Shown one piece after another: positions 5,915 through 37,801 of a DNA stretch of 37,801 bases. The notes under the pieces are model-generated. The model was not told the DNA's origin and ran no database searches. It worked only from the letters and a program-made list of their open reading frames with translations. Both the position numbers and the translations under genes were made by a program. The stretch's first letter is position 1; the number at the start of each line of letters is the position of its first letter. The DNA lies in IMG/VR virus record IMGVR_UViG_3300031730_000014, positions 1 to 37,801 of that record. One strand, given 5' to 3'. This DNA is from a virus.

Positions 5915-6012
5915 AGCTGTCCCCCGGAGACAGTGGTTATCTGAATACGGTAACTGCCTTTGTGTATTCAGATTGTCGCCGGGATTGGCGTTGGTCAAGT
6001 GGAAGGGCGATT
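5915..6012. promoter_or_regulatory. Divergent promoter/operator region of the GntR cassette
   Basis: Perfect 10-bp inverted repeat ATCTGAATAC (5939-5948) / GTATTCAGAT (5964-5973) with a 15-nt spacer. GTATAC at 6017-6022 lies just inside the GntR gene. Confidence 0.55.
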
Positions 6013-6816
6013 ATGCGTATACAGATTGACGCGATCAGTGGAAGCGGGAGCATCGCTGTGGCACAGCCTGAGTACCTGCGGATCGCCGCCGACCTGCGGC
6101 GCCGCATCGCACCCGGCGGCGAGTACGGACCCGGCGACCGCATCCCCACCCTCCCCGAACTCTGCGAGCAGTACGGCGTCTCAGAGATCACCGTCCGCAA
6201 CGCGCTGCGTCTCCTCACCAACGAGGGGCTCATCGAGTCCAGGGCCCGCGCAGGGACCATCGTCCGTGCCCGGCCGGCCATTCACCGGATGCCCGCCGAC
6301 CGCTACCGGTCCACGCCCGGCACCAAGTCGACGCCGTACACCAGGGATCAGGGCATCGGCTGGACCGAGTACCGCCTCGACAAGAGGTTCGAGCGCGTCC
6401 AGGCCGACGCTGAGCTGGCCGCCCTGTTTGAGTGCGAGGTGGGCGAGCGGCTCCTCGCCCGGCACTTCGTGTTCTACGACAACGACCAGCCCACCCAGAT
6501 GTCCATCAGCTACGTGCGGTGGTCGGACGTCGAGGGGACGCCGGTCGCCGACCCCATCAACGAGCCGTGGCCGGGCGGCACTCGGGCACAGATGGCGTCC
6601 CTCGGGATCCGCGTCACGGCGATCACCGAGTCTTTCCAGGCGGGCATGCCCACCGAGTTGGAGGCGGCGACGCTGCGCATCGGCTCGGGCGTTCCGGTCC
6701 TGCGGTACACGCGGCGCCACATCGCCGACACCGGCCGGATCGTCGAGGTCGCTCACCCGATCGTGCGCCGCGGAGACACCACCATCGTCGACTTCCGCAT
6801 CGACCTCGACGACTGA
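6013..6816 (+). CDS. GntR-family (HutC/UTRA-type) transcriptional regulator
   Basis: ATG at 6013 after GGAAGGG. The winged HTH is YLRIAADLRRRIAPGGEYGPGDRIPTLPELCEQYGVSEITVRNALRLLTNEGLIESRARAGTIV. The C-terminal UTRA-like domain is ...GERLLARHFVFYDNDQPTQMSISYV...VLRYTRRHIADTGRIVEVAHPIVRRGDTTIVDF. Confidence 0.9.
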   Translation: MRIQIDAISGSGSIAVAQPEYLRIAADLRRRIAPGGEYGPGDRIPTLPELCEQYGVSEITVRNALRLLTNEGLIESRARAGTIVRARPAIHRMPADRYRSTPGTKSTPYTRDQGIGWTEYRLDKRFERVQADAELAALFECEVGERLLARHFVFYDNDQPTQMSISYVRWSDVEGTPVADPINEPWPGGTRAQMASLGIRVTAITESFQAGMPTELEAATLRIGSGVPVLRYTRRHIADTGRIVEVAHPIVRRGDTTIVDFRIDLDD

Positions 6817-13543: not shown

Positions 13544-16500
13544 CTACGCGAGACCGAGGCTGCCGCCGCCGCTGTTCCGTTTGAGCTCCAGGAGCGTCTT
13601 TTGGATCGCCTTGCCGACGCTCATCGGATCGGCTGTCGGCGCTACCTGGACCGTCACCTGCACGACGGTCCCGCCGCCCGGACGTACAGCAGCTGCCCGC
13701 CCGGCTACCGGGGCGACCGTCGCGCGTCCGGCCATCCGGCCCGCCACGGTGTCCATTGCCCGGTCGACGTGCGGCAGGCCCTGCAGGACACCGACCGCCA
13801 CACCACGCGCGGTGTTGATGCCGTCGGGGATCATCGCCCTGGCCGGGCTCTTGATGCCGAGGGCCTTCCGCAGCGCCTTCTGCATCGACTTGGCCAGCTT
13901 CTCCATGGTCGCTTCCAGGGATTTCTCCTGGGAGAGCAGACCCGTGAGGAAGCCCTTGGACGCGTTCTTGCCCGAGTCGTACAACTTGTCCGCGCCGGAC
14001 TTGCCCAGGGCCGTGGTCGACGAATCGATCTGCGACTGAAGGGCGTTGATGGACTTGAAGGTGCCCTTGTCCGCGCCGACCAGGGCGGAGGCGTAGGCGT
14101 ACCCGGCCTCCGGGCCCATGTTGAGGATCTGCCTCAGCAGGCTCTTCGACAGGCCCTTCTTGGCGAGGATGTCGATGTACCGGGTGAACTGGCGGATCTG
14201 CGCCAGCTTGCCCGCGAGGCCCGCCTTGATGCTGCTGCCCGAGACCTGATCCGGCTCCAGTCCCAGACTCGACAGGGAGGCGCCCTCGCGCGCGGACCTC
14301 GTGACGTCGCCCGCGAACGCCTTCGCTGCGGCGATCCGCGCGGCGATCGCGTCGCGCTTCTTCGCCGCCGCCAGCAGCTTGTCGGTCTGCTTGTCGACGT
14401 ACCGGACCAGGCCGGACTCCTTCTTGCCGGAGAACGCCGTCTTGATGTCCTTGACCAGGTCGGCAGCCGTCGACTTGATCTTTGCCGCGCTGCCGGTAAG
14501 GCCCAGTATCAGGCCCTTGCCCATGTCCTTGGCGAGCGCCGTCGTCTTCTTTGACGGCGAGCGGATCTCCATCTCGTCACGGATCCCGGCAGTGACCGCG
14601 GACGCCATCAACCGTGCGGCCGCACCCACGCTGCCCGCGGCGCCGGCCATACCGGACACGAGGCCGGCCGCCACTGCGGCTCCCGCGCCCGCCATGCCGT
14701 ACCCGGAGCCGAGGCGGTCCTCGTTGATGGCCTCGACGAGGGACCGGTACTTCGCCGTCGACTTGGCGTTGATCATGTACTCGCCGTTCGAGGCCATGAT
14801 CGGGACGCTGTCCGAAGTGCCCGTGCCCGGGCCACGGATGGGGCCGCCACCGGGAAACCCAATAGGGCCGCCCGTGGCGTAGTTGCGGTGCGCCGGCGCG
14901 ACCGCACTCTTCGACCCCACCGTGGTGAATACCGACGTGATGTGGACCGTCTTGTCGTTGACGGACGCCAGTTGACCCTTGGCCCGTCGGACCTTCGCTT
15001 CGAGGTCGGCGATGGTCGCCTTCAGCGCGGCCTGCTTCGACGGCGGGACCGTGGCCAACTTCCGCTTGGCCTCGGCGAGCTGCGCCGTCCAGTTGTTGAT
15101 GTCCAGCTTCAGCTTGCCCGCCGACAGCTTCGGCGCCGACGAGGCCGCGAACTCGGTCGCCTTGCGCTCCGCGGCGTCGAGGCTGCTCAGGTATTTGCCC
15201 TTGAAGCTGTCGAACTCGGAGCTGGCCTTCTTCAGTTTCGGACCGATGCCGGGCATCCAGCCGAACAGCTTCGCTGCGGCGCCCACGACCACGCCGACCG
15301 AGTCCATGAACGCTTGGCTGATGAACCGGAAGGCATGGATGACGATCGGCGCGGCGTTGATCGCGGCCCCGGTGAGGTCGATCATGGCGACGCCGAAGAC
15401 GCGGGACGCCTCCAGGATGCCGATCTTGTTCTCGGCGACCCACTGATTCAGGCGCTGAAGTGGCCCGACCGCGTTGTTCACCGAGTCGCCGATCGGCAGG
15501 AAGGCACCAGCGATCCCCATCGCGGTGTCCTTGAGCGTGGGCCCGATGAGGGCTCCGACGTCGCGGATCGTCTTCATCCCGAACGTGATGTCCCGGAACA
15601 CCGGCTGCAGTTTGTCCAGGGCGCCTGCCAGGACGTCCATGGCGCCGGCCGCGATGTCTCCGCCGACCTTGAAGGTCTCGCCGAACATCGGGCCTAGGAC
15701 GCGGCCCGCTTCCCCGCCGAGACGGCCGATCCCGCCGACCACGCTGTCGACTGCGGAGAACAGACCGTCGAGCATCTTGGCGGCGCCGGGGATGCCGGTC
15801 TTCAGCCCGTCGAACATCTCGGGCAGTCCCTTGGACAGCAGGCCGCCGATGCCGTCGGAGAAGGCCTTCAGTGTCGGGCCGGAGGCCGCACCGAAGTCGA
15901 GCAGGCTCTTGGCGAACGGGCCGACCGACGACGTCATGTCGCGGATGAATCCGGTGCCCAGCTTCAGGTTGGTCTGGAGGTCGTCCTGGAAACCCGAGTC
16001 CTTCAGCAGGCGGCCGACGCCCTTGGCTGCGTCACCGAACCCCTTGCCCATCTCGGTCGCGGACCTGCCGAGGATCTTCACCACCGGCGCGGCGTCCTTC
16101 ACCGCGCGCGTGAACCCCGGGAGCATCGCCTTCTGGACGTCTCGGCCGACGCCGGCGAACTCCTTCTTCGTGCTGACGAGCGCCTTGGTGAAGTCGCGCT
16201 GTTCGGGGCCCAGTTTCTTCAGGGCCTCGGCGTATTCCTTCTTGCCCTTGCCCGCAGCCTCCATCGCGTCACCGACACCGGCGAAGCCGAGCTTGAGGGT
16301 GACCGCTGCCAGGGCGCCCCCGGCCAGCATCGGCACGAGTGCCCCGAGTGCTGGCAGCAGGGACAGGCCTGCCGCACCGGCCACGGCCATCATGCCGCCG
16401 CTGAGGCCACCGCCCGAGCTGCCCAGACTGGTGGCCGCACTTCCGCTCGCGGAACCGACGTCGCGTAGGCGCCGGGCGACGTCGGGCGCGCCATCGCCCA

Positions 16501-16873
16501 GGACGCCCTGCGCGTCGGCCGCGGAGAGGAAGCGGCCGCGCAGATCGCGCAGTCGTCCGTTGGCGTCCGTGGTGAACGCGGCCACACCGCGCTGAGCACG
16601 CGTACTGGCGTCGCTGATGTGGAGCAGGCGGCGGGCCGCCGCCGCTATGCGGCTCCCCATAGAGTCCGCGGAGTCCCCGGCCGTGGAGAACCGGGACTGC
16701 AGCGTGCGGAGCCGGGTGCCTGCGTCGTCGGCCATGGACCGGACGGCGGTCGAACTGCGCTGGCTCATGTCGGCCAGGCGGCGGTGCAGTCGTTCGCTGC
16801 TGTCGCCTGCCCGGTTGAGGACCCGGCTCAGCCGGTCGTCGCCGTCGAGGATGAACCGCATACGGTCCGACAT
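13544..16873 (-). CDS. Tape measure protein
   Basis: About 1109 aa, Ala/Gly-rich and helical, with hydrophobic GxxxG-like stretches (GGLSGGMMAVAGAAGLSLLPALGALVPMLAGGALAAV). It follows the G/GT chaperone genes. ATG at 16873 lies 6 nt after GGAGG (the track start at 16876 is a GTG one codon upstream). Confidence 0.92.
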   Translation of the reverse strand: MSDRMRFILDGDDRLSRVLNRAGDSSERLHRRLADMSQRSSTAVRSMADDAGTRLRTLQSRFSTAGDSADSMGSRIAAAARRLLHISDASTRAQRGVAAFTTDANGRLRDLRGRFLSAADAQGVLGDGAPDVARRLRDVGSASGSAATSLGSSGGGLSGGMMAVAGAAGLSLLPALGALVPMLAGGALAAVTLKLGFAGVGDAMEAAGKGKKEYAEALKKLGPEQRDFTKALVSTKKEFAGVGRDVQKAMLPGFTRAVKDAAPVVKILGRSATEMGKGFGDAAKGVGRLLKDSGFQDDLQTNLKLGTGFIRDMTSSVGPFAKSLLDFGAASGPTLKAFSDGIGGLLSKGLPEMFDGLKTGIPGAAKMLDGLFSAVDSVVGGIGRLGGEAGRVLGPMFGETFKVGGDIAAGAMDVLAGALDKLQPVFRDITFGMKTIRDVGALIGPTLKDTAMGIAGAFLPIGDSVNNAVGPLQRLNQWVAENKIGILEASRVFGVAMIDLTGAAINAAPIVIHAFRFISQAFMDSVGVVVGAAAKLFGWMPGIGPKLKKASSEFDSFKGKYLSSLDAAERKATEFAASSAPKLSAGKLKLDINNWTAQLAEAKRKLATVPPSKQAALKATIADLEAKVRRAKGQLASVNDKTVHITSVFTTVGSKSAVAPAHRNYATGGPIGFPGGGPIRGPGTGTSDSVPIMASNGEYMINAKSTAKYRSLVEAINEDRLGSGYGMAGAGAAVAAGLVSGMAGAAGSVGAAARLMASAVTAGIRDEMEIRSPSKKTTALAKDMGKGLILGLTGSAAKIKSTAADLVKDIKTAFSGKKESGLVRYVDKQTDKLLAAAKKRDAIAARIAAAKAFAGDVTRSAREGASLSSLGLEPDQVSGSSIKAGLAGKLAQIRQFTRYIDILAKKGLSKSLLRQILNMGPEAGYAYASALVGADKGTFKSINALQSQIDSSTTALGKSGADKLYDSGKNASKGFLTGLLSQEKSLEATMEKLAKSMQKALRKALGIKSPARAMIPDGINTARGVAVGVLQGLPHVDRAMDTVAGRMAGRATVAPVAGRAAAVRPGGGTVVQVTVQVAPTADPMSVGKAIQKTLLELKRNSGGGSLGLA

Positions 16874-17474
16874 CACTCACCTCCGCGGATCTGTGCCTGG
16901 TGGTTGTCGATCCAGGTGGTGAGCAGGTCGAACTCTTCCTCGGTGAGGTCGTCGACGTCGCGCGGGGTGTAGCCGAAGTGCAGCCCGAACAGCGGCAGGT
17001 AGCTCAGCCGTCGCTCGGTGAAGCTGCCTCCGTCGGCGGCGTCTCCGGGGCGGGGGCGGGGGCCGGGTCTTTTGGGGCCGTCACGTCGGCGATCGCGGCC
17101 TCAGCGTCTGCAGGGTCGTGCGCCACGTCGCGGAGCTCGTCGAACGCCTCGGCGAGATCGTCCGGGTTCTCCCGGTACTCCTCGAACATGGCCTCGGCGT
17201 AGGCCTTGACCTCGCGGGCGTCGAGCCGGGAGCGCAGCTCACCCTCGAACGGATCGAAGTCACCGAACCTGAGAGCGGGTTCGGTGCGCTTCCGAATCGC
17301 CCAGACGACGACCCGCAGGGCGTGAATGTCGCCAGACCTCACGCCCTCCTTGATGTCAGCCCATCGGGCGTCAGCGGTGCGCTCGATGATCTGGATCTCG
17401 GAGGCGCGCAGCTGGCCGCGGCCGGCGTCGAAGGACTGCGGCTCGGAGCCCTCGGGCTCGTAGACGATGATCAC
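16873..17474 (-). CDS. Tail assembly chaperone GT fusion, produced by a -1 programmed frameshift
   Basis: The -1 frame is open from the slippery site to TGA at 16873-16875. It encodes ...RRLSYLPLFGLHFGYTPRDVDDLTEEEFDLLTTWIDNHQAQIRGGE, a typical T-segment motif. The stop overlaps the tape-measure ATG. Confidence 0.7.
17004..17474 (-). CDS. Tail assembly chaperone G
   Basis: GTG start 8 nt after AGGAG; 156 aa. It sits between the tail-tube region and the tape measure and has an acidic/Pro-rich C-terminus. Confidence 0.75.
   Translation of the reverse strand: MIIVYEPEGSEPQSFDAGRGQLRASEIQIIERTADARWADIKEGVRSGDIHALRVVVWAIRKRTEPALRFGDFDPFEGELRSRLDAREVKAYAEAMFEEYRENPDDLAEAFDELRDVAHDPADAEAAIADVTAPKDPAPAPAPETPPTEAASPSDG
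17070..17076 (-). promoter_or_regulatory. Slippery heptamer C_CCA_AAA for the G/GT -1 frameshift
   Basis: In the G reading frame the codons are GCC CCA AAA GAC, which fits X_XXY_YYZ. The plus strand reads ttttggg at 17070-17076. Confidence 0.6.
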
Positions 17475-20581: not shown

Positions 20582-21796
20582 TCAGGACGCGCCGCCGACG
20601 AAGACCTTGACCGCGCCGGTCTGGTCGATGAGCAGGCCGTCCGCGCGGATGATCGCCCGGAAGGTGACCAGGTCGGAGTTGAACGCGTAGTCGTCGGAAC
20701 GCTCGAAGCGCACCCCGCCCGCCAGGCGGACGAAGTACTGCGCGAAGTCACCGAACGCGACCGACTTCGCCGACAGTGCGGGCGCGGCCACGTTCGGGTC
20801 GGTGTGGACCGGCTTGCCCAGCAGCGTGTCCGGGGCGCCGACCTGGATGGACGGCTGCCACAGGTACTGCCCCTGCCCGTCCTTGAGCTTGCGTGCGGCG
20901 CCGAGAGTGGCGTCCCGCATCAGCCAGCCGCACGAGGTGCTGTTCCGGTACGGGGCGATGACCGAGTAGTACAGGTCGATCAGGTTGTCCGCGGTGAACG
21001 CACCCACCACGGCCGTGCCGCCGGTCACACCGGTCGAGGCGGAGGTGATGACACCGGTCGGCTTCGACGAGCCGTCACCGGTGATGGCGTGGACGCCGAA
21101 CGCGTTGCCCAGCGCCCGCCCGGCCTGCATCGCCAGGTAGCCCTCCAGGTCGACACCGGTGTCGGACAGCAGCTCGGACGACGCCTGCAGGAGAACGCCG
21201 TACTTGTACGCACCCAGAGTCCGCTTGGCGAACGCCGGGTCCGACTCCGAGATGGGTGCGGCCTCGGCGGTGAGCGCGGCGCTGGAGTGCGCCGTGGTCA
21301 CCGGGATCTCGATGCTCTCGCCGGACGCCGTGTTCAGCACGGTCGGCCCGGCCATCATGATCCCGGACACCTCGATGAGGTGCGCCATCAACTGGCCGTA
21401 GAACGTGGTCGGCACGGTGTTGCCGCCCGCCGTCGCGGTGCCCTTGACCAGGTCACGGAAAGCGACACCGTCAGGCTTGGCGATGTCGATGCCGCGCATC
21501 TCGCCGCGCGCCCAGCGCCGCAGCTCGGAGTCCTTGTCGCTCTTGCGCTCCTGCTCCTGCGGCTTGGCGAGCAGCCCGGCGAACGCAGCCTCGGCGTCCT
21601 TGGTGCGCTGCTCCGCCTCGACCAGGTCCTTGGCCCGCTGGTCCATCTTGTCGAGGTCGGCGTTGAAGGCCTGGTACTTGGCCTCCTCCTCCGCCGTCAG
21701 ATCCCGCTTCTCCTTCTCGGCCGTGTCGAGCAGCTCCTTGGCCTGCTCCCACACGTTGGCGCGGCGCTCCTGCAGCGCCTTGATGAACGAACTCAC
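20582..21796 (-). CDS. Major capsid protein, HK97 fold
   Basis: GTG after AGGAGGG. The N-terminal coiled-coil delta-like domain (RDLTAEEEAKYQAFNADLDKMDQRAKDLVEAEQR) is followed by a capsid body. The gene follows the prohead protease. Confidence 0.9.
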   Translation of the reverse strand: MSSFIKALQERRANVWEQAKELLDTAEKEKRDLTAEEEAKYQAFNADLDKMDQRAKDLVEAEQRTKDAEAAFAGLLAKPQEQERKSDKDSELRRWARGEMRGIDIAKPDGVAFRDLVKGTATAGGNTVPTTFYGQLMAHLIEVSGIMMAGPTVLNTASGESIEIPVTTAHSSAALTAEAAPISESDPAFAKRTLGAYKYGVLLQASSELLSDTGVDLEGYLAMQAGRALGNAFGVHAITGDGSSKPTGVITSASTGVTGGTAVVGAFTADNLIDLYYSVIAPYRNSTSCGWLMRDATLGAARKLKDGQGQYLWQPSIQVGAPDTLLGKPVHTDPNVAAPALSAKSVAFGDFAQYFVRLAGGVRFERSDDYAFNSDLVTFRAIIRADGLLIDQTGAVKVFVGGAS

Positions 21797-21884: not shown

Positions 21885-22559
21885 TCAGAAGGTGCGGCGA
21901 CTCATGAGCTCGGCTCGCCGCTGCCGTACCGCCATGACCGGGTGGGGGTCGCCCTGCCCAGTCGGCGGAATGATCGTGGGGGCCGGGGCCCCGAGGAACC
22001 GCTTCAGCTCGCCCGCCTCGGCCGCGGCCCGCACCTCGGCCAGCTCGGCGCCGGCCTTCTCCGCCAGAGAGCGCAGCCCCGTCGAAGTGTCCAGGTAAGC
22101 CGGATCGTTGACCGGGGCCACGTCGACCAGCTGCCCGGACAGCAGCGTCCGCACAGGGAAGCCGTCGTCCGTCATCGACCAGTCGTCCTCGAACGTGAAG
22201 AACGCGAACGACGACTCGGTGACGTCGCCGCGCTGCACCAGCTCGTACACGTCACCGCGGGCCGCGGGCACGTCGACGCTGTAGTCCAGCCCCGTACCGT
22301 CCGTCTGTAGCCGCAGCGTGCCCGCACGGGAGGTGCCCAGCAGCATGTTGTTGTCGTGGTTGTAGCGGGCCATCACACGCGGCCAGCCGTCCCCCTCGGA
22401 CTTCGCGAAGAACCCGGGGTCGATGCGCTCGACAAACCCGCCAAGGTTGCGGGACAGCGTGTTGAACTTCGCCGCGTACCCGCCGATCGTCCTGCTATCG
22501 CCGGCCGCCCGGACCTCCACGAGGCCGCGCGTGAACCGACGCTCACTGTCGCCGTTCAT
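21885..22559 (-). CDS. HK97-family prohead protease
   Basis: ATG at 22559 overlaps the portal stop. MNGDSERRFTRGLVEVRAAGDSRTIGGYAAKFNTLSRNLGGFVERIDPGFF...ARYNHDNNMLLG...GDVTESSFAF matches the S78/U35 protease pattern. The track ORF extension to 23699 is spurious. Confidence 0.88.
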   Translation of the reverse strand: MNGDSERRFTRGLVEVRAAGDSRTIGGYAAKFNTLSRNLGGFVERIDPGFFAKSEGDGWPRVMARYNHDNNMLLGTSRAGTLRLQTDGTGLDYSVDVPAARGDVYELVQRGDVTESSFAFFTFEDDWSMTDDGFPVRTLLSGQLVDVAPVNDPAYLDTSTGLRSLAEKAGAELAEVRAAAEAGELKRFLGAPAPTIIPPTGQGDPHPVMAVRQRRAELMSRRTF

Positions 22560-23704
22560 CACTTCTCGCTTTCGTCGCGGGCCACCTTGCCCAGTGGCGC
22601 GTAGTCCTTGCCCAGACCGTTGGGCAGGGGCGGTTCGTCTTCCATCCGGCGCAGCTCGTCGATGTTGTGCAGGCCGATCGCCCGGGAGATCCGGTGGGCC
22701 TGGTAGCGGGTGAGGGTGTCGGTGCGGAGCATCGCGTCCGCGTTGAACCGGGCCTCTTCCGTGGGAGGGCGCAGCAGCGAGAACGCGTCCTCCAGGCGGG
22801 CGAGCCACGGGCGCAGCGTCCACGTCAGGAGGTCGATGCTGTTCTGCTCGACCGTGGCGTAGGTGAGGCTGCCGCCCGTCTCGCCGCCGACCTTCTCCGG
22901 CGGCACGCCGTAGATTGCGGCGATCTGGTTCGCGGTCGCCTTGATGGTCTCCAGGAACTGCGACTCGTTGGCCGGCACCGAGATGGCCCGGTACTTCACG
23001 CCGTTGCCCAGCGCGACCACGTCGCGGCCCTGGGCAGCTTCCTTGAAGCGGGCCTTCAGGATCGTCGCCGCGTCCCGGTCGACGACCATGTCCGTCTCCA
23101 GGACCGCGCTCGGGGTGGAGCCGTTGGCGAACCAGTCCCGCCCGAACTGGTTGGCCAGCAGCCCGGCCTCCGTCGTCGTCGCGAAGTACGCGATCGGCGA
23201 CAGCCCGAGGATCTGCCCGGGCACCGTGTACGCGGGGACGTGAAACATCTGCCCGTCCTCGAGACGGCGGCCCTTGTAGTACCAGACCGGCACCGCAGCG
23301 AGGTTGTCCTCGATGTGGACGTCGTCCGGGTGGAGCCACTCGATCTGGGACGGCCAGCCGTCCGGGCCCCAGGCGACGATCAGCCCGTAGGCGTTGCCGC
23401 GCAGCGTCAGCGACGTCATGCACCGGTGCAGCCAGTCGTAGCGCGTACCGACCGCGCTCGGGCGGCGGAACAGCGGGGGCACCGGGGCCCGCAGCCGGTC
23501 CTCTCCGTCCGCCCGGTAGGACTTCAGCGGCAGGGACGCCACCGAGTCCGCCAGCAGCCGCGTGGCCGCGTACACGGGCCCCAGCCGCAGCGCCCGTTCC
23601 TGGCTGCCGCCGCGCAGTACGGCTGGGTCCGAGCCCGAGCCCCACACGTCCTGGTACGAGATCGCCCGCTTCAGCGCCGTTCGACGGAAGGGCCACCACC
23701 TCAT
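22559..23704 (-). CDS. Portal protein (HK97 family)
   Basis: 381 aa, lying between the large terminase and the protease. Sequence ...LGPVYAATRLLADSVASLPLKSYR...NAYGLIV...WLHPDDV... Confidence 0.88.
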   Translation of the reverse strand: MRWWPFRRTALKRAISYQDVWGSGSDPAVLRGGSQERALRLGPVYAATRLLADSVASLPLKSYRADGEDRLRAPVPPLFRRPSAVGTRYDWLHRCMTSLTLRGNAYGLIVAWGPDGWPSQIEWLHPDDVHIEDNLAAVPVWYYKGRRLEDGQMFHVPAYTVPGQILGLSPIAYFATTTEAGLLANQFGRDWFANGSTPSAVLETDMVVDRDAATILKARFKEAAQGRDVVALGNGVKYRAISVPANESQFLETIKATANQIAAIYGVPPEKVGGETGGSLTYATVEQNSIDLLTWTLRPWLARLEDAFSLLRPPTEEARFNADAMLRTDTLTRYQAHRISRAIGLHNIDELRRMEDEPPLPNGLGKDYAPLGKVARDESEK

Positions 23705-23717
23705 TTCGTCACCCTTC

Positions 23718-25256
23718 TCACCACACGCTGCTCAGAATGTCTCCGGACCGCTTGTCCTCCACCTCGGCGCCGAGGCCCCACTTGGCTTCCGTCGCCGCGA
23801 CCAGGGGGCTGATATCGACGGAGACGATCCGCCGGGCCCACGCCCACGAGTCACCGAGCGTCCGTTTCTGCGCACCCGCCAGCGCCGACGCCAGCGGCGC
23901 CTCGTCGAAGTGGGTCAGCGACTGGTCGGCGACAGCGTCGTAGAACTGGCCGCAGGCCGCCGCCATCTCCCGGGCCTTGGGCTTGACCACCTCGACGCCC
24001 AGGCCGTCGTCCTCGTCCTCCAGATCGTCGATGAGGGAGCCTGCAGCGCTGGCCGGATCGACCACCCAGCAACGCGGCTCCCACTTGGCGTGCAGCTCCT
24101 TGGCGCGCTCCACGACCCAGCCCACGCCGGGCCGGTGGTCGACCACCGTGACGTGCACACCGCCCCGCCAGGGGAACGCTGCGCAGATCGCCGCGTGCGA
24201 CCGCTCCGGGGTGACGTCGATGGCGAACGCCACCGTCCCCGACCGCTCGGCGTCTGTGACCGCCAGGGCCCGCCAGGCTTCCTCGCCGATGACCTGCCAG
24301 GTGGCCGCCTGGTCGGACGGGTAGTCGCCGACCCCGAGCCGCTCACGGGCGTACAGGGCGTCGCCCATCGTCAGCCTCCGGTGCATGCTCTTCTCGACTT
24401 GGAGCCGGTAGCCGACGGCCGGGTTCGCCTTCAGCAGCGACGCGACGGAGTCGATGTCGTCGTGCTCCGTACAGCCACGCGGGCACTCAGCCAGGTGCGG
24501 GGTGATGGACCACTCGAAGTACGCCAGGACCGGATCCAGCGTGCCGCTCTCCAGCGCGGCCATGGCCCGGGCCCGCAGCCGCCCCAACTGCTGCGACGGG
24601 GCGCCGATGCCTGCGCTGCCGAGGAACCACAGCTGACTGTTCTCGACGGCCTCCGTCGTCGGCGCGAGGGCCGACATGGAGTCGTCGCCGAGAATCATGC
24701 ACTCGTCGAAGATGACGCAGTCCGAGGTGAAGCCACGGCCGGAGCCGCGGGAGCGGGCGATGTACTTCAGCTCCCGCCCGTCATGCAGCTCGATGCCCTC
24801 GCGGCCTACCGTCTTGTGGTACGCCTTGACGCGTTTATGCAGGTCAGGGCATCCGCGGATGAGGCGCTCGATGCGCTTCATCGTGTTCATCGTGGTTTTG
24901 AACTCGTGAGCCGACAGCAGGATCTGCTTCTCGCCACCGATGAACAGGCCCCACAACACGCGGGCCTCGATCACTCCGCCCTTGCCGTTCTGGCGCGGCA
25001 GGTTAATCGCGACCTCGGGCGCCGACCAGGAACCGTCCGGCTTCTCGCCCATCCCGACGCGCAGGATGTGCTGCTGCCACGGATCCAGCTTCAATCCCGC
25101 GCGCGCGGCAAGGTCGATAGCCTCCTGGCCGGCGCTCGACACCGACGGCGGCGCAGTCTCGATCGGCGGCTTCTGCCAGCCGTAGACCGGCTCGTCAGCC
25201 GGTGGACTGCTCACGGGCTGCGGCTCGGCGCTTCTCTCGCTGCTCAGCAATGTCAT
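23718..25256 (-). CDS. Terminase large subunit
   Basis: 512 aa. The sequence ...DPWQQHILRVGMGEKPDGSWSAPEVAINLPRQNGKGGVIEARVLWGLF...FDECMILGDD... carries ATPase Walker-like motifs, followed by a nuclease half. The gene is directly upstream of the portal. Confidence 0.9.
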   Translation of the reverse strand: MTLLSSERSAEPQPVSSPPADEPVYGWQKPPIETAPPSVSSAGQEAIDLAARAGLKLDPWQQHILRVGMGEKPDGSWSAPEVAINLPRQNGKGGVIEARVLWGLFIGGEKQILLSAHEFKTTMNTMKRIERLIRGCPDLHKRVKAYHKTVGREGIELHDGRELKYIARSRGSGRGFTSDCVIFDECMILGDDSMSALAPTTEAVENSQLWFLGSAGIGAPSQQLGRLRARAMAALESGTLDPVLAYFEWSITPHLAECPRGCTEHDDIDSVASLLKANPAVGYRLQVEKSMHRRLTMGDALYARERLGVGDYPSDQAATWQVIGEEAWRALAVTDAERSGTVAFAIDVTPERSHAAICAAFPWRGGVHVTVVDHRPGVGWVVERAKELHAKWEPRCWVVDPASAAGSLIDDLEDEDDGLGVEVVKPKAREMAAACGQFYDAVADQSLTHFDEAPLASALAGAQKRTLGDSWAWARRIVSVDISPLVAATEAKWGLGAEVEDKRSGDILSSVW

Positions 25257-27979: not shown

Positions 27980-30103
27980 CTATTCGCCGTCCTCGACGGC
28001 AGGGAGATCGGCGTAGCGGAGGCCCTTGGCGCCGCCGCAGCACTCCCGGATCGTCAGCTGCTTGGTGGAAACCTTGAAGGGCTTCAGCGCGGCGCTGAGG
28101 GCCGTCGACGAGCCTGCGGCATCCAGCTCCAGCCACTGCTTGTACAGGTCGGCCCGGTAGGCGGCGAGGGCCTCGACGAGCCGGTGGGAGTGCACAGCCT
28201 CGACACCGTCCGGCCAGACCGCCCGCAGGTGGTCGACGACCGTCTCGACGTCCTGCTCTTCGACCGCGGCACCGACGGCCTGTCCGGTGAGGGTGCCGGC
28301 CGCGGTGCGCAGTGCGAGGGCCCGCTTCCCGATGTCCTCGGCTTCGGTCTGCTTGATGAACGCGGCGCGGACGGTGATGCCTTCGCGGCCGCGGGCGAGG
28401 ATGCCGGTGCCCTGTTCGTCGACGCTGATGTCGGTGGCGCGCAGGCCGCGGTCGTAGGCGCCGGTGCCTAGGACGTTGTTGTTGGCTCGCCAGTCCATGA
28501 CGGCCAGGCACAGACGGGTGCCGACTGACGAGGAGACGCCGGTGGGCAGGGACGGCGCGTCCGGGTTCTGGGTGAGCAGGATGAGGATGATGCCGTAGGC
28601 GCGGCCCTTCTTGATGAGGCGGGTGGCCAGGGCGGCGGCCTCGTCCTTGTAGTCGGCGTGGGTGAAGAGTTCCTGGACCTCGTCGATGACGATGACGCGC
28701 GGGCCGAGGTTCTGTTCCGGGTACTTCTCAGCCAGCGCGCGGGTGACCTTGCGGCCCTCGGGGACCTCGCTGGACGGCAAGGACTTGATGAACTTGGCGC
28801 GCCGCTGGTACTCGGCGATCCCGGAGCGCATGCCGCCGAGGGCGGCCTCCAGGTCCTCGTCTTCGTCGCCGGAGACGTAGCGGTGGCAGACGGGGCGGAC
28901 GGAGTCGAGGTCGCCGGATCCCTTGAGCTCGAAGATCCACAGTTCGGCGGTGGGGTCGAGGGCGACTCCGAGGACGATGGCGAGGGCGCAGGAGGTCTTG
29001 CCGGAGCCGGGGATGCCTCCGACCAGGAGGTTTGAGTACATGAGGGTGATCTCGACGAGGTTGCCGCGCGGGTCGAAGCCGTAAGGCAGCGGCTCGTACA
29101 CGTCGGCCTGGCCGTCCTTCATCAGCGGCCACAGCTTGCGGGCGGCCTTCGCGGGGTCGCGCTGCGCCACCCACAGGACGAGGCGTCCGGGATGCGCGGT
29201 GCGGTCGCCCTCAAGCCACACGGTGCTGATGGGGCGGCGCATGGCGGCGGCGAGCGCGGCCCGCTTCTCCAGGACGGCGCTGGCCTCGATGCCGGGGGGC
29301 AGGTCGACCTCGGCTCGCCAGCCGGGCCCGTCGCGCATGACCTCGGAGGCGAACTCGGTTCCCTTCTTGCCCTTCTTGCCTTCGATGCCGATTGCGGCGA
29401 GCGCGTCGAGGACCTCGGTGGAGTCGAGGCGGCGCAGGACGTTGGTGGCGACGTAGCGGGTGATCAGCGGCTTCCCGTCGCTCTTCTTGCCGTTGAGGCC
29501 GACAAGGGTGGCCGCGGTGAGCGTCGCGGTGAGCGTCCAGCCGGGGGCCAGGAAGCAGCCGGCCAGCGTGGTGATGCCGGTGGTCGTGGCGACCGCCAGG
29601 GAGGCGATACGGCGTGGCCGGACGCGGCGGGAGTGCTCGCGGGACAGCGTGATCCAGGCGTCGATGTCCGCGGACGCGGCGGCCTTGGCTTCGACGGGTC
29701 GGGCCTCGGTGTCCGCGACCCACTTGCCCCAGCGGAGAACCATGCGGGCGAGGCCGCGGGGCGCGCGGGTGAGCAGGCGCAGGGCGTAGACGGGCAGGCG
29801 GATGGCGTGGAAGGCGGTGACGTGGCCGTAGTACGACGCGGTCCAGCGGGCGGCGTTGACGAACTCGGCGGCGTTGCGCAGGAACGTGGGGACGACGGGC
29901 GGGGCGTCGGCGAGGTACGCCTGCTTCTCCGCGATCCAGGTGCCTGCGGGCGGGGCCTGCTCGGGCGGGTCGACAGGACGCGGCTCGGCGTTCTGGACGA
30001 CGTCGATGATGGTCTGCTTCAGGTCCGCGTCCTGGACGTCCTCGCTATCCGGCGGGGGCGTCCTGGGGGCGTCCTTGTGGAGCTGTACGACGTTGTTCGT
30101 CAT
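27980..30103 (-). CDS. FtsK/SpoIIIE-family DNA translocase, TraB-like
   Basis: 707 aa. Hydrophobic N-terminal segments (IASLAVATTTGITTLAGCFLAPGWTLTATLTAATLVGL), Walker A GGIPGSGKTS, Walker B PRVIVIDEVQELF, LLTQNP, and a C-terminal helical domain. Confidence 0.9.
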   Translation of the reverse strand: MTNNVVQLHKDAPRTPPPDSEDVQDADLKQTIIDVVQNAEPRPVDPPEQAPPAGTWIAEKQAYLADAPPVVPTFLRNAAEFVNAARWTASYYGHVTAFHAIRLPVYALRLLTRAPRGLARMVLRWGKWVADTEARPVEAKAAASADIDAWITLSREHSRRVRPRRIASLAVATTTGITTLAGCFLAPGWTLTATLTAATLVGLNGKKSDGKPLITRYVATNVLRRLDSTEVLDALAAIGIEGKKGKKGTEFASEVMRDGPGWRAEVDLPPGIEASAVLEKRAALAAAMRRPISTVWLEGDRTAHPGRLVLWVAQRDPAKAARKLWPLMKDGQADVYEPLPYGFDPRGNLVEITLMYSNLLVGGIPGSGKTSCALAIVLGVALDPTAELWIFELKGSGDLDSVRPVCHRYVSGDEDEDLEAALGGMRSGIAEYQRRAKFIKSLPSSEVPEGRKVTRALAEKYPEQNLGPRVIVIDEVQELFTHADYKDEAAALATRLIKKGRAYGIILILLTQNPDAPSLPTGVSSSVGTRLCLAVMDWRANNNVLGTGAYDRGLRATDISVDEQGTGILARGREGITVRAAFIKQTEAEDIGKRALALRTAAGTLTGQAVGAAVEEQDVETVVDHLRAVWPDGVEAVHSHRLVEALAAYRADLYKQWLELDAAGSSTALSAALKPFKVSTKQLTIRECCGGAKGLRYADLPAVEDGE

Positions 30104-31096: not shown

Positions 31097-31269
31097 CGCG
31101 TCCACCCCCGGATGTGGCGGCTGATGCGCGGCCACGCGATGACGCCGGCCGCGAACGCGAGGACGGCGGGCTGCGAGACGAGCCCGGCAACGACGGCCAG
31201 GACGAGGGCGAGGAGCGTCGGGTACGCGACGAGGAGGCCGAGGACGGCGCCGAACAGGATGCGCATCAT
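31093..31269 (-). CDS. Small membrane protein (58 aa)
   Basis: ATG at 31269 with an ATGA overlap onto the upstream stop. Sequence MMRILFGAVLGLLVAYPTLLALVLAVVAGLVSQPAVLAFAAGVIAWPRISRHIRGWTR. The listed 336-aa ORF is an over-extension. Confidence 0.55.
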   Translation of the reverse strand: MMRILFGAVLGLLVAYPTLLALVLAVVAGLVSQPAVLAFAAGVIAWPRISRHIRGWTR

Positions 31270-32039
31270 GACGGCACCGCCTCGTAGTCGGGGAGCTCGT
31301 CCTCGTGGAAGAGGTTGCGTCCTCCGATGCCTTTGCGGTGGACGGTGAGGCGTCCTGAGGCGACCCAGGAGCGGACGGTGGACATCTCGATGCCGTACTT
31401 CGCGGCGACCTGGGCGGAGTTGAGGAGGGGCGGTTGGGGCGGGATCTGGTTCGCTTCCGCCCAGTCGTCCTCGGCGTCCTGGTCCGTCCCGGGCGGGAGT
31501 TCGGGCGTCCCGTCGGCGTCCTGCTCGTCGAGCCGTTCGAGAGTGATCTCGTCGGTCGACAAGGGGTCGGCCTGACCCTCTGTCGCTACCTCGGGGACGC
31601 TCGGGACGGCTGGAGACGCCGGGGCGTCCTCGGCGTCGTGCGCCAGGCGCTCGTGCAGCTGCCGCATGAGGGCGCCGAACGCTACGAGTGCGGCGGAGGG
31701 CGGGACGGCGGCCACGATGTACTCCATCGGGTCGGCCCCGTATCCGACGCCCGCGACGTTCAGTGCGATCGAGCCGAGGGACCCGAATGCGGCGAGGGCG
31801 ACGGCCCACCAGTCCATGCCGCGGCGGGCCAGCGACGCGCGGAGGATGAGGAGTTCCCCGGCGACGATGAACAGGTCGACGGTGGCGGGCCAGGCCCAGG
31901 CGCGGGCGCCGTCGAGGCCGTTGTCGTCGGCGATGTCGTGGAGGTGTTCGTAGGACAGCCAGAAGGCGGCTGCGGTGAGCAGGATGGTGACGGTGGCTGC
32001 GCCGACGGCGAGGCCGTCGCGGGCGTTGATACGGCTCAT
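31266..32039 (-). CDS. DUF2637-like polytopic membrane protein with a C-terminal HTH (SpdA-type spread protein candidate)
   Basis: The N-terminal half is LAVGAATVTILLTAAAFWLSYEHLHDIADDNGLDGARAWAWPATVDLFIVAGELLILRA...WAVALAAFGSLGSIALNVAG, followed by an acidic linker. The C-terminal LLNSAQVAAKYGIEMSTVRSWVASGRLTVHRKG is an excisionase-type HTH. Confidence 0.75.
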   Translation of the reverse strand: MSRINARDGLAVGAATVTILLTAAAFWLSYEHLHDIADDNGLDGARAWAWPATVDLFIVAGELLILRASLARRGMDWWAVALAAFGSLGSIALNVAGVGYGADPMEYIVAAVPPSAALVAFGALMRQLHERLAHDAEDAPASPAVPSVPEVATEGQADPLSTDEITLERLDEQDADGTPELPPGTDQDAEDDWAEANQIPPQPPLLNSAQVAAKYGIEMSTVRSWVASGRLTVHRKGIGGRNLFHEDELPDYEAVPS

Positions 32040-32758
32040 CGGCCTTCACCTCGCAGGCGGGCGAGCTCGGCGATGGCGCGGTCGAGGCGGGCGGACGCGA
32101 CACGAATGGCGCGGGTGAGGTGCCGGCCGTCCTCCGGGTCGACGGAGGCGTCGAGGTCGAGGGCGACGTACAGGACGGGGTGGGGCTCGGGCTGCTGTAC
32201 GGCGTGGGGTGCGTGGGTGATGCAGCCGTGCATGACCTCGATCTCGCCGTGGCTGGCGGTGATGGCGGTCGCGGTGATGGGCGGCCCGTTGTGGGTGACG
32301 TCGGCGAGGCGGCCGACGGTGTCGTCGCCGTGGCCGATGCACCAGACGGGCTCGTCGACGGTGACCTCGCCGTGGTCGCTGGTCTGCAGCGTGACGGTGC
32401 CGTCCCTGTAGCGGGGGTCCTGCGCCAGGGGCGGGGCCGGGTCGCGCCGGGTGTAGGCGCGTTCGATGGCGGCGTCGATGGCGGCCAGCAGCTCGGGGGA
32501 GATGCGGGCGGTGGACGCTTCCTGCTCGGTGCCGATGACGGCTGCGGCGGCGAGGTAGCCCTCGACTTCGCGGCGGACGTCGAGGATGTCCAGCTCCGGA
32601 AGCGGCGGCTGGCCGGCCTGCTCGGCGTGGCCGATGGCGAGGGCGGCGCGCAGCTGCTCGCGGGAGACGACGAGGGAGATGTTGACCGTGGCGAACGCGT
32701 CCCAGTCGTCGTCGCAGGGGATCGGGTCGGTGGGTCCGAAGGCGGGCGGGGTGCTCAC
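32036..32758 (-). CDS. Hypothetical protein (240 aa)
   Basis: GTG at 32758 with a GTGA overlap. Sequence VSTPPAFGPTDPIPCDDDWDAFATVNISLVVSREQLRAALAIGHAEQ...VWCIGHGDDTVGRLADVTHNGPPITATAITASHGEIEVMHGCITHAPH... The upstream part of the listed 318-aa ORF is junk. Confidence 0.6.
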   Translation of the reverse strand: MSTPPAFGPTDPIPCDDDWDAFATVNISLVVSREQLRAALAIGHAEQAGQPPLPELDILDVRREVEGYLAAAAVIGTEQEASTARISPELLAAIDAAIERAYTRRDPAPPLAQDPRYRDGTVTLQTSDHGEVTVDEPVWCIGHGDDTVGRLADVTHNGPPITATAITASHGEIEVMHGCITHAPHAVQQPEPHPVLYVALDLDASVDPEDGRHLTRAIRVASARLDRAIAELARLRGEGR

Positions 32759-34425: not shown

Positions 34426-34944
34426 CTAGAAGGGCGGGTTCTCGGGGTGTCCTGCCGGGGCCGCGGCGGGCTGCTGCTGTTGCGCGCCACCCCATCCGCC
34501 ACCCCCCTGCTGCCCGTTCGCGGCCTGGGCGCCGGCCCACGGGTCGCCACTGCCCTCCCGCGAGGAGGCCTGTCCGCCGCTGGGGTTCTTGGTGACCTTG
34601 GCGGTGGCGCGGGCGAGGGTGGGCCCGACCTCGTCGACGTCGAGCTCGTAGACCGTGCGCTTCACCTGCTCCTTGTCCTCGTAGGACCGCTGCTTGAGCC
34701 GCCCCTGGACGATGACGCGCATGCCGCGCTGGAGGGACTCGGCGACGTTCTCGGCGGCCTGCCGCCACACCGAGCAGGCGAGGAACAGGGAGTCGCCGTC
34801 GCGCCACTCGTTGGTCTGCTTGTCGAAGATCCGTGGGGTGGAGGCGATGCGGAAGCGGGCGACGGCCGCGCCGGCCGGGGTGAAGCGGAGTTCGGGGTCG
34901 TCGACCAGGTTGCCGACGACGGTGATCACGGTCTCTCCGGACAC
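34426..34944 (-). CDS. ssb: Single-stranded DNA-binding protein
   Basis: OB-fold motif [83 protein letters not shown], a Gly/Gln-rich linker and a C-terminal PPF tip. Confidence 0.95.
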
Positions 34945-35417: not shown

Positions 35418-35644
35418 TGGTTCTCCTCGGTGTTGAGGCCGTGGGCGTCGCGGGCGGCGGCCATGATCTGGTCGACGAGGGCCTGGCCGCGCTCGGGGTT
35501 CGGCGAGTGGGCGGCGAGGGTTCGCATGCCGGCCTCGTCGATGACGGTCAGGGTCCGGCCGAACGTGTCGGTGATGGTCTTGGTGTTCACGCCGAGTGCG
35601 GCACAGATGGCCTTGGCGTCGGCGTCGGTGAGGTCGTCGGTCAC
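35414..35644 (-). CDS. Hypothetical protein (76 aa)
   Basis: GTG at 35644 after GAGGAGGA, with a GTGA overlap. Sequence [70 protein letters not shown]... Confidence 0.55.
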
Positions 35645-35856
35645 TGGTCCTCCTCGGTGGTGGTTGTCTCCGTCGGGGTGACGGAGACAGATCCGTCCGT
35701 CGTGCGGGCGGAAGCCTGGTTGCGGAGCTTGGCGGCGTGCCGGTGGGCGAGGCCGCGTTGCCGTGCGGCGGCGAGGGCTGCGCGCCGGCGCCTGGCCGCT
35801 TCCGCGCGGGCGCGGGCGGCGGCGATCTTCTCCGCAACGACGTCGTCGACGTTCAC
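35641..35856 (-). CDS. Hypothetical basic protein (71 aa)
   Basis: GTG after AGGAAGG. It is the first gene downstream of the iteron region. Sequence VNVDDVVAEKIAAARARAEAARRRRAALAAARQRGLAHRHAAKLRNQ... Confidence 0.5.
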   Translation of the reverse strand: MNVDDVVAEKIAAARARAEAARRRRAALAAARQRGLAHRHAAKLRNQASARTTDGSVSVTPTETTTTEEDQ

Positions 35857-35918
35857 GGCCGTGCACCTTCCTGTGGTGAAAAGACGGCAGCTAGATGAGA
35901 GGTGGCCTCGGGCCGGTT

Positions 35919-36173
35919 CGAAGGCTTTCCGAAGGCTTCGAAGGGATGAGCGGGCGATCCCTTCGGGGGCTTGACCTGCGGGTTCGAAGGGACCGAAGGG
36001 TTCGAAGGGATCCGGGTGGGGTCTGGCGCCAATGGGCCATAGGTGAAAGGGCCGTCAATCTCGTATGCGCAAGACCTCGTGTACTTCCCTTCGATCCCTT
36101 CGAAGTGCAGGTCAGACCCTTCGGGGATCCCTTCGGTATTCCTTCGGGGAAGCCTTCGGATCCCTTCGCGAAG
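35919..36173. repeat. Iteron-like array: opposed clusters of CGAAGG / CCTTCG repeats flanking a lower-GC spacer (candidate replication origin)
   Basis: CGAAGG at 35919, 35930, 35939, 35985, 35994 and 36003. CCTTCG at 35960, 36088, 36097, 36118, 36130, 36141, 36153 and 36163. The extended unit GATCCCTTCG occurs at 35956, 36093, 36126 and 36159, and its complement CGAAGGGATC at 36003. The array lies in the 325-nt non-coding gap directly downstream of the primase-helicase gene. Confidence 0.6.
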
Positions 36174-36181
36174 ATCCATAG

Positions 36182-37666
36182 TCAGAAGGACGGAACGGTC
36201 TGGAGTCCGTAGATCACCGACCTTCGGTTGGTGGGGTGCTGGCCTCGGGCATAGCCCTTCTCCTGGAGGGCGTCGCCGAACGCGCGGATGCTCATCTCGC
36301 GGAGGGACCCGGTCTGGCACCACTGCTTGTAGCTGGCGAAGAGCACGCCGGTCTCGGTGTACTGGTCGGTCTCGATCGGCCTGGTGCACTCGTCCCGCCA
36401 CATCAGGAGCGGATCGGACTTCGCCAGGTGCTCCTGCGTCTTCTCCTTGACTGCGGCAGGTACGGCAAGCCCGTTCTGCTGCCAGTCGAGGCATCCGGCG
36501 ATCGCCCAGTTCAGTACGCCCGCCGCCTCATTGGCGAGGATCTTCTCGTCGTACTTCTTGATGCGCTTTTCGGGCGGCACGATGACGTCCCAGCCGATGT
36601 CCTGGAGGCGGCGGGCGATGCCGTGCCCGCCGCCGACGGTAGGCAGGTAGTTGGTGACGAGGTGGATCTTGCCGACGGGCCGGAAGTCGAAGTACTCCTT
36701 GTTGAGGAACCGGGCGCTCACGGTGTCCTCGCCGGTGAGCTGCTTGACCAGCTCGTCGTCGAGCTTCTTGCCGGCCGATGTCTCGGTCGTGGAGAGCAGG
36801 CGCTTGCCCATCATCCGGGCGACGTCGTTGGGGATGCCTTCGTTCTGCTTGGCCATCAGGGTCGACCGTGGAACGGACTGCGCGTAGTCGCCGAAGATCT
36901 CGGTGATGACGCGCATGAACACGCCCTTGCCGTTCTGTCCGTCGCCGTGGTGGATGAACATCACCTGCTCCTCGGTGGAGCCGGTGAGGGTGTAGCCGAT
37001 GACGCGGGCCAGGTAGGCGCGCCGCTCCTCGTCGGGCATGACCGAGGCGAGGAACTCTTCCCACATCGGGGCCTTGGCGTTCGGGTCGTAGATGATGGGT
37101 GACTGCTGCATCAGGTACAGCCCGGCCTCGTGCTGCTGGAGTTCGCCCGTGCGCAGGTCGACGACGCCGTTTCCGACGTTGAGCAGCATCTCGGGCCGGT
37201 CGAAGTCGTCCATGTAGCAGTGCAGGGACGGGTGGCCCTGTGCCACCTCGCGCATCGCTGCGAGCTTGGGACGCATCCGCTGCGACGCCGCCCACTTCAT
37301 GAACGTCTCGCGCGGAGAGGGCAGCTCCTTGCCGTCCTCGCCGCGGCCGGGCACGTTGCTGTACGCGCCCGCCTCGGTGTGCGCGAGTGCGTCGATGGTG
37401 CGGATGACGCGCTGCCAGACCCGGGTCGATCCGCCCTTGAAACTCCAGCGGCCGTCCTCGTAGGTCACCCATTGCTCGGCGTCCACGGTGTACCGGATCT
37501 CGGATCCGTAGTGGTCGACGAGCCGCTCTGCGTTCCCGATGTCGTCGAGGGTGCGGCGCGGATACGCCAGGCTCCGCTGAGGTGTTGGCCCCGGCTCGTC
37601 GACGGCAGGGGGTTCCGGTTCCCCGGCCCACATGTCGTCGTCGGGGACATCGGCCGCGGAGGTCAC
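36182..37666 (-). CDS. Phage/plasmid primase-helicase (P4-family / D5-like SF3 NTPase)
   Basis: 494 aa. D5_N-like ...LLNVGNGVVDLRTGELQQHEAGLYLMQQSPIIYDP...WEEFL..., Walker A FIHHGDGQNGKGVF, ...LLSTTETSAGKKLDDELVKQLTGEDTVSARFLNKEYFDFRPVGKIHLVTNYLP..., and a C-terminal ...FASYKQWCQTGS... segment. Confidence 0.9.
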   Translation of the reverse strand: MTSAADVPDDDMWAGEPEPPAVDEPGPTPQRSLAYPRRTLDDIGNAERLVDHYGSEIRYTVDAEQWVTYEDGRWSFKGGSTRVWQRVIRTIDALAHTEAGAYSNVPGRGEDGKELPSPRETFMKWAASQRMRPKLAAMREVAQGHPSLHCYMDDFDRPEMLLNVGNGVVDLRTGELQQHEAGLYLMQQSPIIYDPNAKAPMWEEFLASVMPDEERRAYLARVIGYTLTGSTEEQVMFIHHGDGQNGKGVFMRVITEIFGDYAQSVPRSTLMAKQNEGIPNDVARMMGKRLLSTTETSAGKKLDDELVKQLTGEDTVSARFLNKEYFDFRPVGKIHLVTNYLPTVGGGHGIARRLQDIGWDVIVPPEKRIKKYDEKILANEAAGVLNWAIAGCLDWQQNGLAVPAAVKEKTQEHLAKSDPLLMWRDECTRPIETDQYTETGVLFASYKQWCQTGSLREMSIRAFGDALQEKGYARGQHPTNRRSVIYGLQTVPSF

Positions 37667-37801
37667 GCTGCCTCCCTGTCGTCGCAGCGCAGGTACTGGC
37701 CGGGCTGTCCGGGGATGGCCACGGGCGGCCAGCCGGGGGTGGCGCGCAGCTGGTGCGGCGGCTTCGGCTTAGCGGCCTCGTCGAGCTCTCGGCGGGTGCG
37801 G
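37663..37801 (-). CDS. 3' end of the wrapped gene 1..561 (partial at the window edge)
   Basis: It is the same frame as 1..561 read across the circular junction. It ends ...GQYLRCDDREAA with TGA at 37663-37665, and the stop overlaps the GTG start of the primase-helicase gene. Confidence 0.6.
   Translation of the reverse strand, partial: RTRRELDEAAKPKPPHQLRATPGWPPVAIPGQPGQYLRCDDREAA
37675..37801. repeat. Terminal direct repeat, copy B (identical to 1..127)
   Basis: Exact match to 1..127 by direct comparison. Confidence 0.9.

Follow-up and report, generated by a model that had tools for sequence, protein, structure and literature searches.

Opposed hexamer arrays beside a superfamily 3 helicase gene form a candidate replication origin in a Streptomyces-type temperate phage

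Opposed repeat arrays in the gap after the helicase gene

The viral record IMGVR_UViG_3300031730_000014, analysed over its full 37,801 nucleotides (nt) and called the window below, contains a 325-nt gap (35857-36181) between a helicase gene (36182-37666) and the next gene (35641-35856). Positions are those of the window, and "+" and "-" refer to the shown strand and its complement. The gap is filled with 14 copies of a single hexamer: on the + strand, CGAAGG stands at 35919, 35930, 35939, 35985, 35994 and 36003, and CCTTCG at 36088, 36097, 36118, 36130, 36141, 36153 and 36163, plus one copy at 35960. The two opposed arrays flank a 79-nt core, and the region as a whole forms an imperfect, approximately 250-bp dyad. 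An iteron-type origin had been proposed here from the sequence alone. This original prediction gave the same gap and gene boundaries, the same 14 hexamers at the same positions, a 10-mer GATCCCTTCG at 35956, 36093, 36126 and 36159 with its complement at 36003, and a hand-counted G+C of 22/40 for 36041-36080, and all of these values were recovered in our analysis. As it had also claimed, no protein-like open reading frame (ORF) spans the gap, the long open frames having a G+C content at third codon positions (GC3) of at most 0.56 compared with about 0.9 in real genes.

The candidate origin and the two genes that border it are composed as follows:

36182-37666, - strand: helicase gene (candidate initiator), 494 aa, with D5_N, superfamily 3 (SF3) helicase and C-terminal winged helix
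35857-36181: non-coding gap with the whole candidate origin, 325 nt; the dyad itself covers 35919-36168
36118-36168, - strand: helicase-proximal outer array of five iterons (CGAAGG on -), starting at 36163, 36153, 36141, 36130 and 36118, with a spacing of 10-12 bp
36107-36114, - strand: conserved box TGACCTGC, separating the outer array from the inner pair
36088-36102, - strand: proximal inner iteron pair, 9 bp apart, starting at 36097 and 36088
36009-36087: central core, 79 nt, 59.5% G+C
36060-36070: core motif CTCGTATGCGC, reading GCGCATACGAG on the - strand (consensus GCGCATAnGAG on -)
36037-36043: core motif CCATAGG, reading CCTATGG on the - strand (consensus CyTATGG on -)
35985-36008, + strand: distal inner iterons, three CGAAGG copies 9 bp apart (35985, 35994, 36003), facing the proximal set as inverted-repeat pairs
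35972-35979, + strand: second conserved box, TGACCTGC on + (GCAGGTCA on -), mirror image of 36107-36114
35919-35965, + strand: distal outer array of three iterons (35919, 35930, 35939) and one oppositely oriented copy at 35960
35641-35856, - strand: first gene downstream of the candidate origin, 71 aa, in the same orientation as the helicase gene; GTG start, AGGAAGG ribosome-binding site

Read along the minus strand, the first iteron begins 13 nt past the helicase stop codon. Five CGAAGG(G) units are followed by TGACCTGC, two further units and the 79-nt core, after which come three CCTTCG units, GCAGGTCA, one CGAAGG and three CCTTCG. About 60 nt then separate the last repeat from the ribosome-binding site and start of the 71-aa gene, for which neither Pfam nor PHROG returned a family match and which is not kept across the origin family.

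This clustering has no equal elsewhere in the genome. When 300-nt windows were scanned genome-wide, only this region reached 14 copies of one hexamer, the runner-up holding six copies of any hexamer. The hexamer occurs 49 times in the whole window against 24.5 ± 4.8 in shuffled sequences (0 of 100 shuffles reach 49), and for a stretch of approximately 250 nt, in which 14 copies stand here, chance predicts about 0.2. A blastn search of the gap against isolated-phage and plasmid collections gave no match, and the terminator scan returned a single terminator-like match on the non-transcribed + strand, a result that chance can account for.

The lower G+C content attributed to the core is borne out in direction, with 59.5% for the core and 69.6% for the genome, but the AT enrichment is only modest, at about 10 points. 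The lowest 40-nt stretch of the core has 52.5% G+C and falls within the lowest 0.7% of genome windows. We presume that the core, 36009-36087, is the melting region.

Related loci were collected by exact protein look-up (three) and by genome scan (80). Helicase homologues turned out to be abundant in Streptomyces and related genomes, and at least 759 homologues exist in all. Every actinobacterial locus with a helicase at least 59% identical to that of the window possesses the CGAAGG/CCTTCG architecture; these 13 loci, with helicase identities of 59-87%, come from Streptomyces, Kitasatospora and Kribbella. The arrays lie directly 3' of the helicase stop codon in 11 of them (L003-L006, L008 and L010-L015), where the outer array counts 4-6 iterons spaced 10-12 bp apart. 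In L007 the architecture is displaced by approximately 700 nt, beyond an inserted ORF, and in L009 it is dispersed, after a terminator hairpin; both loci carry a deviating iteron flank variant (CGAAGGACC). L001, L002 and L003 have a homologous gap of about 300-320 nt past the helicase gene. Viral contigs searched with the helicase protein as the only query yielded no relative, and a DNA-pattern scan of them revealed eight more contigs with arrays, five of which have a helicase homologue (59-64% identity) that ends just before the arrays.

In L007 (4386-4450) and L009 (4428-4490), a strong G+C-rich terminator-like hairpin (GGAAGGGGCGGCC...GGCCGCCCCTTCGG) is found past the helicase stop codon.

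The canonical form of the element is seen in a subgroup whose helicases are fused to a PrimPol domain. Its layout, consisting of 4-6 units, TGACCTGC, two units, the core, two units, GCAGGTCA and 4-5 units, is more symmetrical than that of the window, in which the distal outer arm is rearranged relative to the canonical 4-5-iteron arm of these more distant relatives. The sole constant neighbour of the arrays is the helicase gene, while the genes on either side vary by subgroup: upstream, a DUF2742 gene in L001-L003 versus others, and downstream, the 71-aa or other ORFs versus an approximately 105-aa CPRCG zinc-ribbon protein in the PrimPol-fused subgroup.

Comparison of the window's subgroup with the PrimPol-fused one, between which helicase amino-acid identity is 0.62, reveals a contrasted pattern. 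Cross-group identity is as follows:

hexamer columns: 0.84
TGACCTGC boxes: 0.82
fourfold-type third codon positions of the helicase gene: 0.57
spacers between iterons: 0.42
core: 0.38

The consensus of the TGACCTGC box is kept by 80% or more of the 13 aligned loci, the inner pair TCGAAGGGrTCGAAGGG is retained across them, with a diverged flank in L007, and the two core motifs are common to all 13. Core length varies only from 75 to 79 nt in 12 of the 13 loci, with a G+C content of 0.48-0.67. Since core identity is as low as 0.38 while length is held within these limits, the core sequence appears free to drift but its length does not. These alignments point to selection on the hexamers and on core length, and not on spacer or core sequence. 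Of 138 pairs of neighbouring iterons with the same orientation, 115 are spaced by 9-12 bp and another 16 by 21 bp; a spacing close to one helical turn is what one would expect if proteins bind along a single face of the helix. The box pair and the two core motifs could constitute a second binding site or a priming site.

More distant helicase homologues have their own, different hexamer arrays nearby. A CTGCCC/GGGCAG array lies directly downstream of the helicase homologue in L036 (4446-4744), a CCTACC/GGTAGG array upstream of it in L016 (341-647), and an ATCACC/GGTGAT array within the helicase-matching region in L023 (4367-4621). In L042 (5837-6125), 16 direct GGAACA copies are located 1.4 kb downstream of the homologue.

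The adjacent helicase and comparable replicons

The gene next to the arrays had been labelled a primase-helicase, and the first half of this label has to be dropped: its product contains D5_N, SF3 helicase and winged-helix regions but no primase (PrimPol) domain. Pfam recognises D5_N (4.5e-23) and DUF5906, an SF3 helicase family (5e-7), in the 494-aa protein, and the PHROG phage primase profiles match it only by their C-terminal halves. Relatives of about 815 aa carry the fused PrimPol (PF09250), from which the window protein and its nearest relatives are free. The homologues are named "phage/plasmid primase, P4 family" by NCBI.

An AlphaFold2 model built from 111 sequences reached a mean predicted local distance difference test score (pLDDT) of 92.4. 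Foldseek placed it close to African swine fever virus (ASFV) C962R (approximately 1e-24), to PriRep of the staphylococcal pathogenicity island SaPI5 (7ola_C, 7e-18, TMt 0.73, 452 aligned columns) and to mpox E5, which is of D5 type. A sequence-profile search also reaches 7ola_A (E 1.6e-7), although sequence identity to PriRep5 is only about 16%. On its predicted structure, the window protein is a structural homologue of SaPI5 PriRep, with the same domain set and fold.

Modelled alone, residues 400-494 form a winged helix with a pLDDT above 90 over the folded part. The best structural matches of this C-terminal domain are the DNA-bound RFX winged-helix DNA-binding domain (TMt 0.72), the C-terminal domain of ASFV C962R and the Orc1/Cdc6 winged helices bound to origin DNA. 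The origin-binding domain of P4 alpha (1KA8) is absent from its top 50 structural matches. The assignment is a match of predicted fold, and DNA binding by this domain is putative. The iteron flanks fall into three variants, CGAAGGgaT in the window's group, tgCGAAGGGGT in the L010 group and tgCGAAGGACC in L007 and L009, against which stand three variants of the helicase winged helix; loci with other hexamers have differing wings in this domain. A covariation between iteron variant and winged helix is suggested by these comparisons.

The pri-rep-ori replicons of the SaPIs were reportedly described by Ubeda et al. in 2007 and 2012. In these replicons rep comes after a primase gene, and the origin directly adjoins the 3' end of the rep ORF (Qiao et al. 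2022, PMC9371898). Iterons of five or six nucleotides, 6-12 per origin, are recognised by the C-terminal winged helix of Rep; the centre of the origin is AT-rich, at least two iterons per side stand in opposite directions, and the primase domain is fused or separate (PMC9371898). SaPI5 PriRep is a characterised self-loading initiator-helicase. The window resembles this design in many respects. A helicase gene of SF3 type and D5/PriRep fold, as judged by Pfam, Foldseek and profile searches, adjoins the arrays, its product has a predicted C-terminal winged helix (by fold only), the iterons stand immediately 3' of the ORF, with seven on the helicase side, six opposed on the far side and one inverted copy, and a primase domain is fused in some relatives and absent from the helicase in others. 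The differences are that the host is a high-G+C actinobacterium, that the element is a complete tailed temperate phage rather than a satellite island, that the iterons number 14 instead of 6-12, and that there is an extra conserved TGACCTGC/GCAGGTCA box pair. Central AT-richness is relative and not absolute here (59.5% G+C in the window core, 48-67% in relatives), and the window genome has no recognisable primase partner.

A second parallel is found in Lactobacillus casei phage A2 (AJ251789.2), in which a rep_origin is annotated at 32208-32717, beginning at the 3' end of ORF35, "putative primase". The ORF35 protein and the window protein share 36.6% identity across 88% of the query, and iterons of about 10 bp (ACGGGAGGAT) form two opposed sets around an AT-rich centre in the same position. 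Unlike in the window, the A2 centre is truly AT-rich, its iteron sequence differs, its protein is 770 aa long as against 494 aa without a primase domain, and its host is a low-G+C Firmicute. The same origin design occurs in Streptococcus thermophilus phages of the Sfi21 type.

Other iteron-dependent systems are more remote. The P4 satellite phage shares a family name with homologues of the window protein, and the C-terminal winged-helix origin-binding domain of P4 alpha recognises short iterons; P4, however, uses ori and a second cis site, crr, several kb apart, whereas the window genome has one repeat cluster only. The SF3 helicases of SV40 (large T antigen) and papillomaviruses (E1) form two opposed hexamers on short inverted repeats to either side of a melting region, which recalls the helicase class and the opposed short repeats around a presumed melting region seen here. 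They belong to eukaryotic viruses, have no sequence relation to the window protein beyond the SF3 core, and carry their origin-binding domain N-terminal to the helicase, where it is not a winged helix.

Classical iteron plasmid origins (RepA/Pi/TrfA) combine a Rep_3/RepA winged-helix Rep with direct iterons of about 17-22 bp and host DnaA boxes. We rejected this class for the window, as no Rep_3-type protein was detected among the 18 ORFs scanned against Pfam and the repeats are 6-11-bp units in opposed arrays.

The origin reading and its alternatives

Collected evidence from conserved architecture, selection pattern, protein fold and the SaPI and A2 layouts favours the original proposal of an iteron-type origin beside an initiator/helicase gene. 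We consider it likely, by sequence comparison, structure prediction and analogy, that the gap 35857-36181 is the replication origin of the phage, served through its winged helix by the adjacent self-loading SF3 initiator-helicase. The product of 36182-37666 would bind the CGAAGG(G) iterons via its C-terminal winged helix. Because the two arrays face each other, we propose that two helicase rings assemble in opposite orientation, flanking the lower-G+C core of fixed length (about 77 bp). The core would then melt and the rings move apart, giving a bidirectional start of replication, which would be of the theta type. Priming would be carried out by the fused PrimPol domain in relatives, and here by another primase or by the host, while the phage single-stranded DNA-binding protein (SSB), encoded approximately 1 kb downstream, would coat the unwound strands.

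Several observations weigh against this interpretation. Origin activity and iteron binding are deduced by comparison both for the element and for its close relatives, and the suggested covariation of iteron variants with winged-helix variants is confounded by phylogeny. The phage has no recognisable primase: a window-wide tblastn search with the PrimPol part of the relatives found nothing. The core is only modestly AT-enriched, and other spots of the genome are AT-richer, for example around 5937, at 35% G+C. Cumulative GC skew shows no turning point at the gap, its detrended extremes lying at about 25576 and 3100; since almost all genes are on one strand, this measure is uninformative, neither for nor against an origin. 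Finally, the arms are near-perfect inverted repeats, which is compatible with a hairpin or cruciform function.

An operator or regulatory array, coated by a phage or host protein that controls readout into the early genes or a core promoter, is in our view an unlikely explanation. In plasmid R1 parC, two repeat sets indeed flank a promoter, origins and operators can overlap, and the gap separates co-oriented genes. In the PrimPol-fused subgroup, moreover, the next gene begins 5-10 nt past the last repeat, so that its transcripts must cross the element or start within it. However, a scan of 35500-36500 found no sigma-70-like promoter, the arrays have the helicase gene and no regulator gene as constant neighbour, and the would-be target genes downstream vary by subgroup. 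Furthermore, opposed arrays around a fixed core of 75-79 nt fit the layout of the SaPI and A2 origins.

It is also quite improbable that the region acts as a long hairpin in read-through mRNA, with a role in processing, stability or attenuation, or as single-stranded DNA or a cruciform, instead of offering double-stranded protein sites. The minus-strand RNA does fold as one long hairpin (-129.5 kcal/mol, z = -5.8, with 0 of 200 shuffles as good), the arms of L006 and L008 are nearly identical inverted repeats, spacers included, and flank changes affect both arms together. When the left arm is compared with the reverse-complemented right arm, the repeat unit is seen to take in spacers in several loci, which weakens the discrimination between hairpin and protein sites. 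A hairpin, on the other hand, has no need for internal direct repeats spaced by roughly a helical turn. In the window and L003-L005 the outer arms lack collinearity, five iterons facing one inverted copy and three others, and the arms of L007 measure 179 and 89 nt. Hexamer identity is kept, not pairing alone, and some asymmetries between the arms are themselves conserved. No Rfam family matched 35500-36500 at a permissive threshold, and dyad symmetry is equally predicted by double-hexamer loading.

A centromere-like partition, packaging or recombination site bound by a protein other than the helicase is hardly credible: two-cluster arrays of short repeats also occur in partition sites, and the genome encodes an FtsK/SpoIIIE-like ATPase (27980-30103), but the element is linked to the helicase gene, no ParA, ParM or ParB gene is adjacent, relatives are prophages that carry integrases and sit integrated in their hosts, about 11 kb separate the element from the terminase gene, and the L002 element lies within an integrated prophage of Streptomyces sp. 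NBC_00096 and is therefore not an attachment (att) site.

As a design, such an origin is already known in SaPIs and in Firmicute phages (for A2, by annotation), and it does not represent a new kind of element. What the comparison adds is a well-conserved family in high-G+C actinobacterial prophages, apparently with three features of its own: the invariant box pair, the strictly kept core length, and a primase-less variant with no recognisable substitute. Our literature searches brought up no iteron origin described for Streptomyces phages, and few origins have been mapped in actinobacterial phages or prophages. By this comparison, the layout of an SF3 Rep gene with opposed iterons reaches beyond Firmicute phages and islands into high-G+C actinobacteria, and the fixed core length constrains models of double-hexamer loading. 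The module of approximately 1.8 kb, composed of the helicase gene and the 250-bp origin, would be a candidate Streptomyces vector replicon and a marker for origin annotation in this prophage family.

The CGAAGG iteron is common to helicases that are only 59-87% identical, from many prophages in at least three actinobacterial genera, with and without fused PrimPol, whereas unrelated SaPI Reps use their own cognate origins (PMC9371898). It is conceivable, though rather doubtful, that these origins cross-react between phages and that the iterons of a resident prophage titrate the initiator of an incoming relative, leading to superinfection exclusion or incompatibility. If so, only the flank variants (GAT, GGT, ACC) and the invariant TGACCTGC boxes, which may recruit a second factor, would adjust the specificity of cross-reaction, and the PrimPol-less variant would rely on an unrecognised primase or loader, for instance the product of the gene upstream of the helicase (DUF2742 in the closest relatives).

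Genome context

Window positions 1-127 are identical to 37675-37801, which indicates a circular (or terminally redundant) assembly with a unit of 37,674 bp. The minus strand holds almost all genes with coding-like GC3, and the gene content is that of a temperate, siphovirus-like phage of Streptomyces type. Besides the two genes bordering the gap, the following were recognised:

3227-4735, - strand: serine integrase
13544-16876, - strand: tape measure protein
20582-21796, - strand: major capsid protein
22559-23704, - strand: portal protein
23718-25256, - strand: large terminase
27980-30103, - strand: FtsK/SpoIIIE-like ATPase
31266-32039, - strand: DUF2637 + HTH_17 protein
34426-34944, - strand: SSB (Pfam SSB 1e-29), part of a replication module shared with the helicase
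37666 across the junction to about 570, - strand: wrapped gene upstream of the helicase gene, approximately 190 aa, crossing the genome ends

The wrapped gene has no match in Pfam or PHROG. The FtsK/SpoIIIE-like ATPase and the DUF2637 + HTH_17 protein, which are typical of actinomycete conjugative elements, coexist here with a full set of tailed-phage structural genes.

The spot of lowest G+C in the genome is 5928-6032 (35-45%). It sits upstream of, and enters the start of, a + strand gene (5962-6816) divergent from the preceding minus-strand genes, and contains a perfect 10-bp inverted repeat, ATCTGAATAC (5939) and GTATTCAGAT (5964), with a related copy at 6014-6032. From this arrangement, the segment looks like the operator region of a lysogeny switch.

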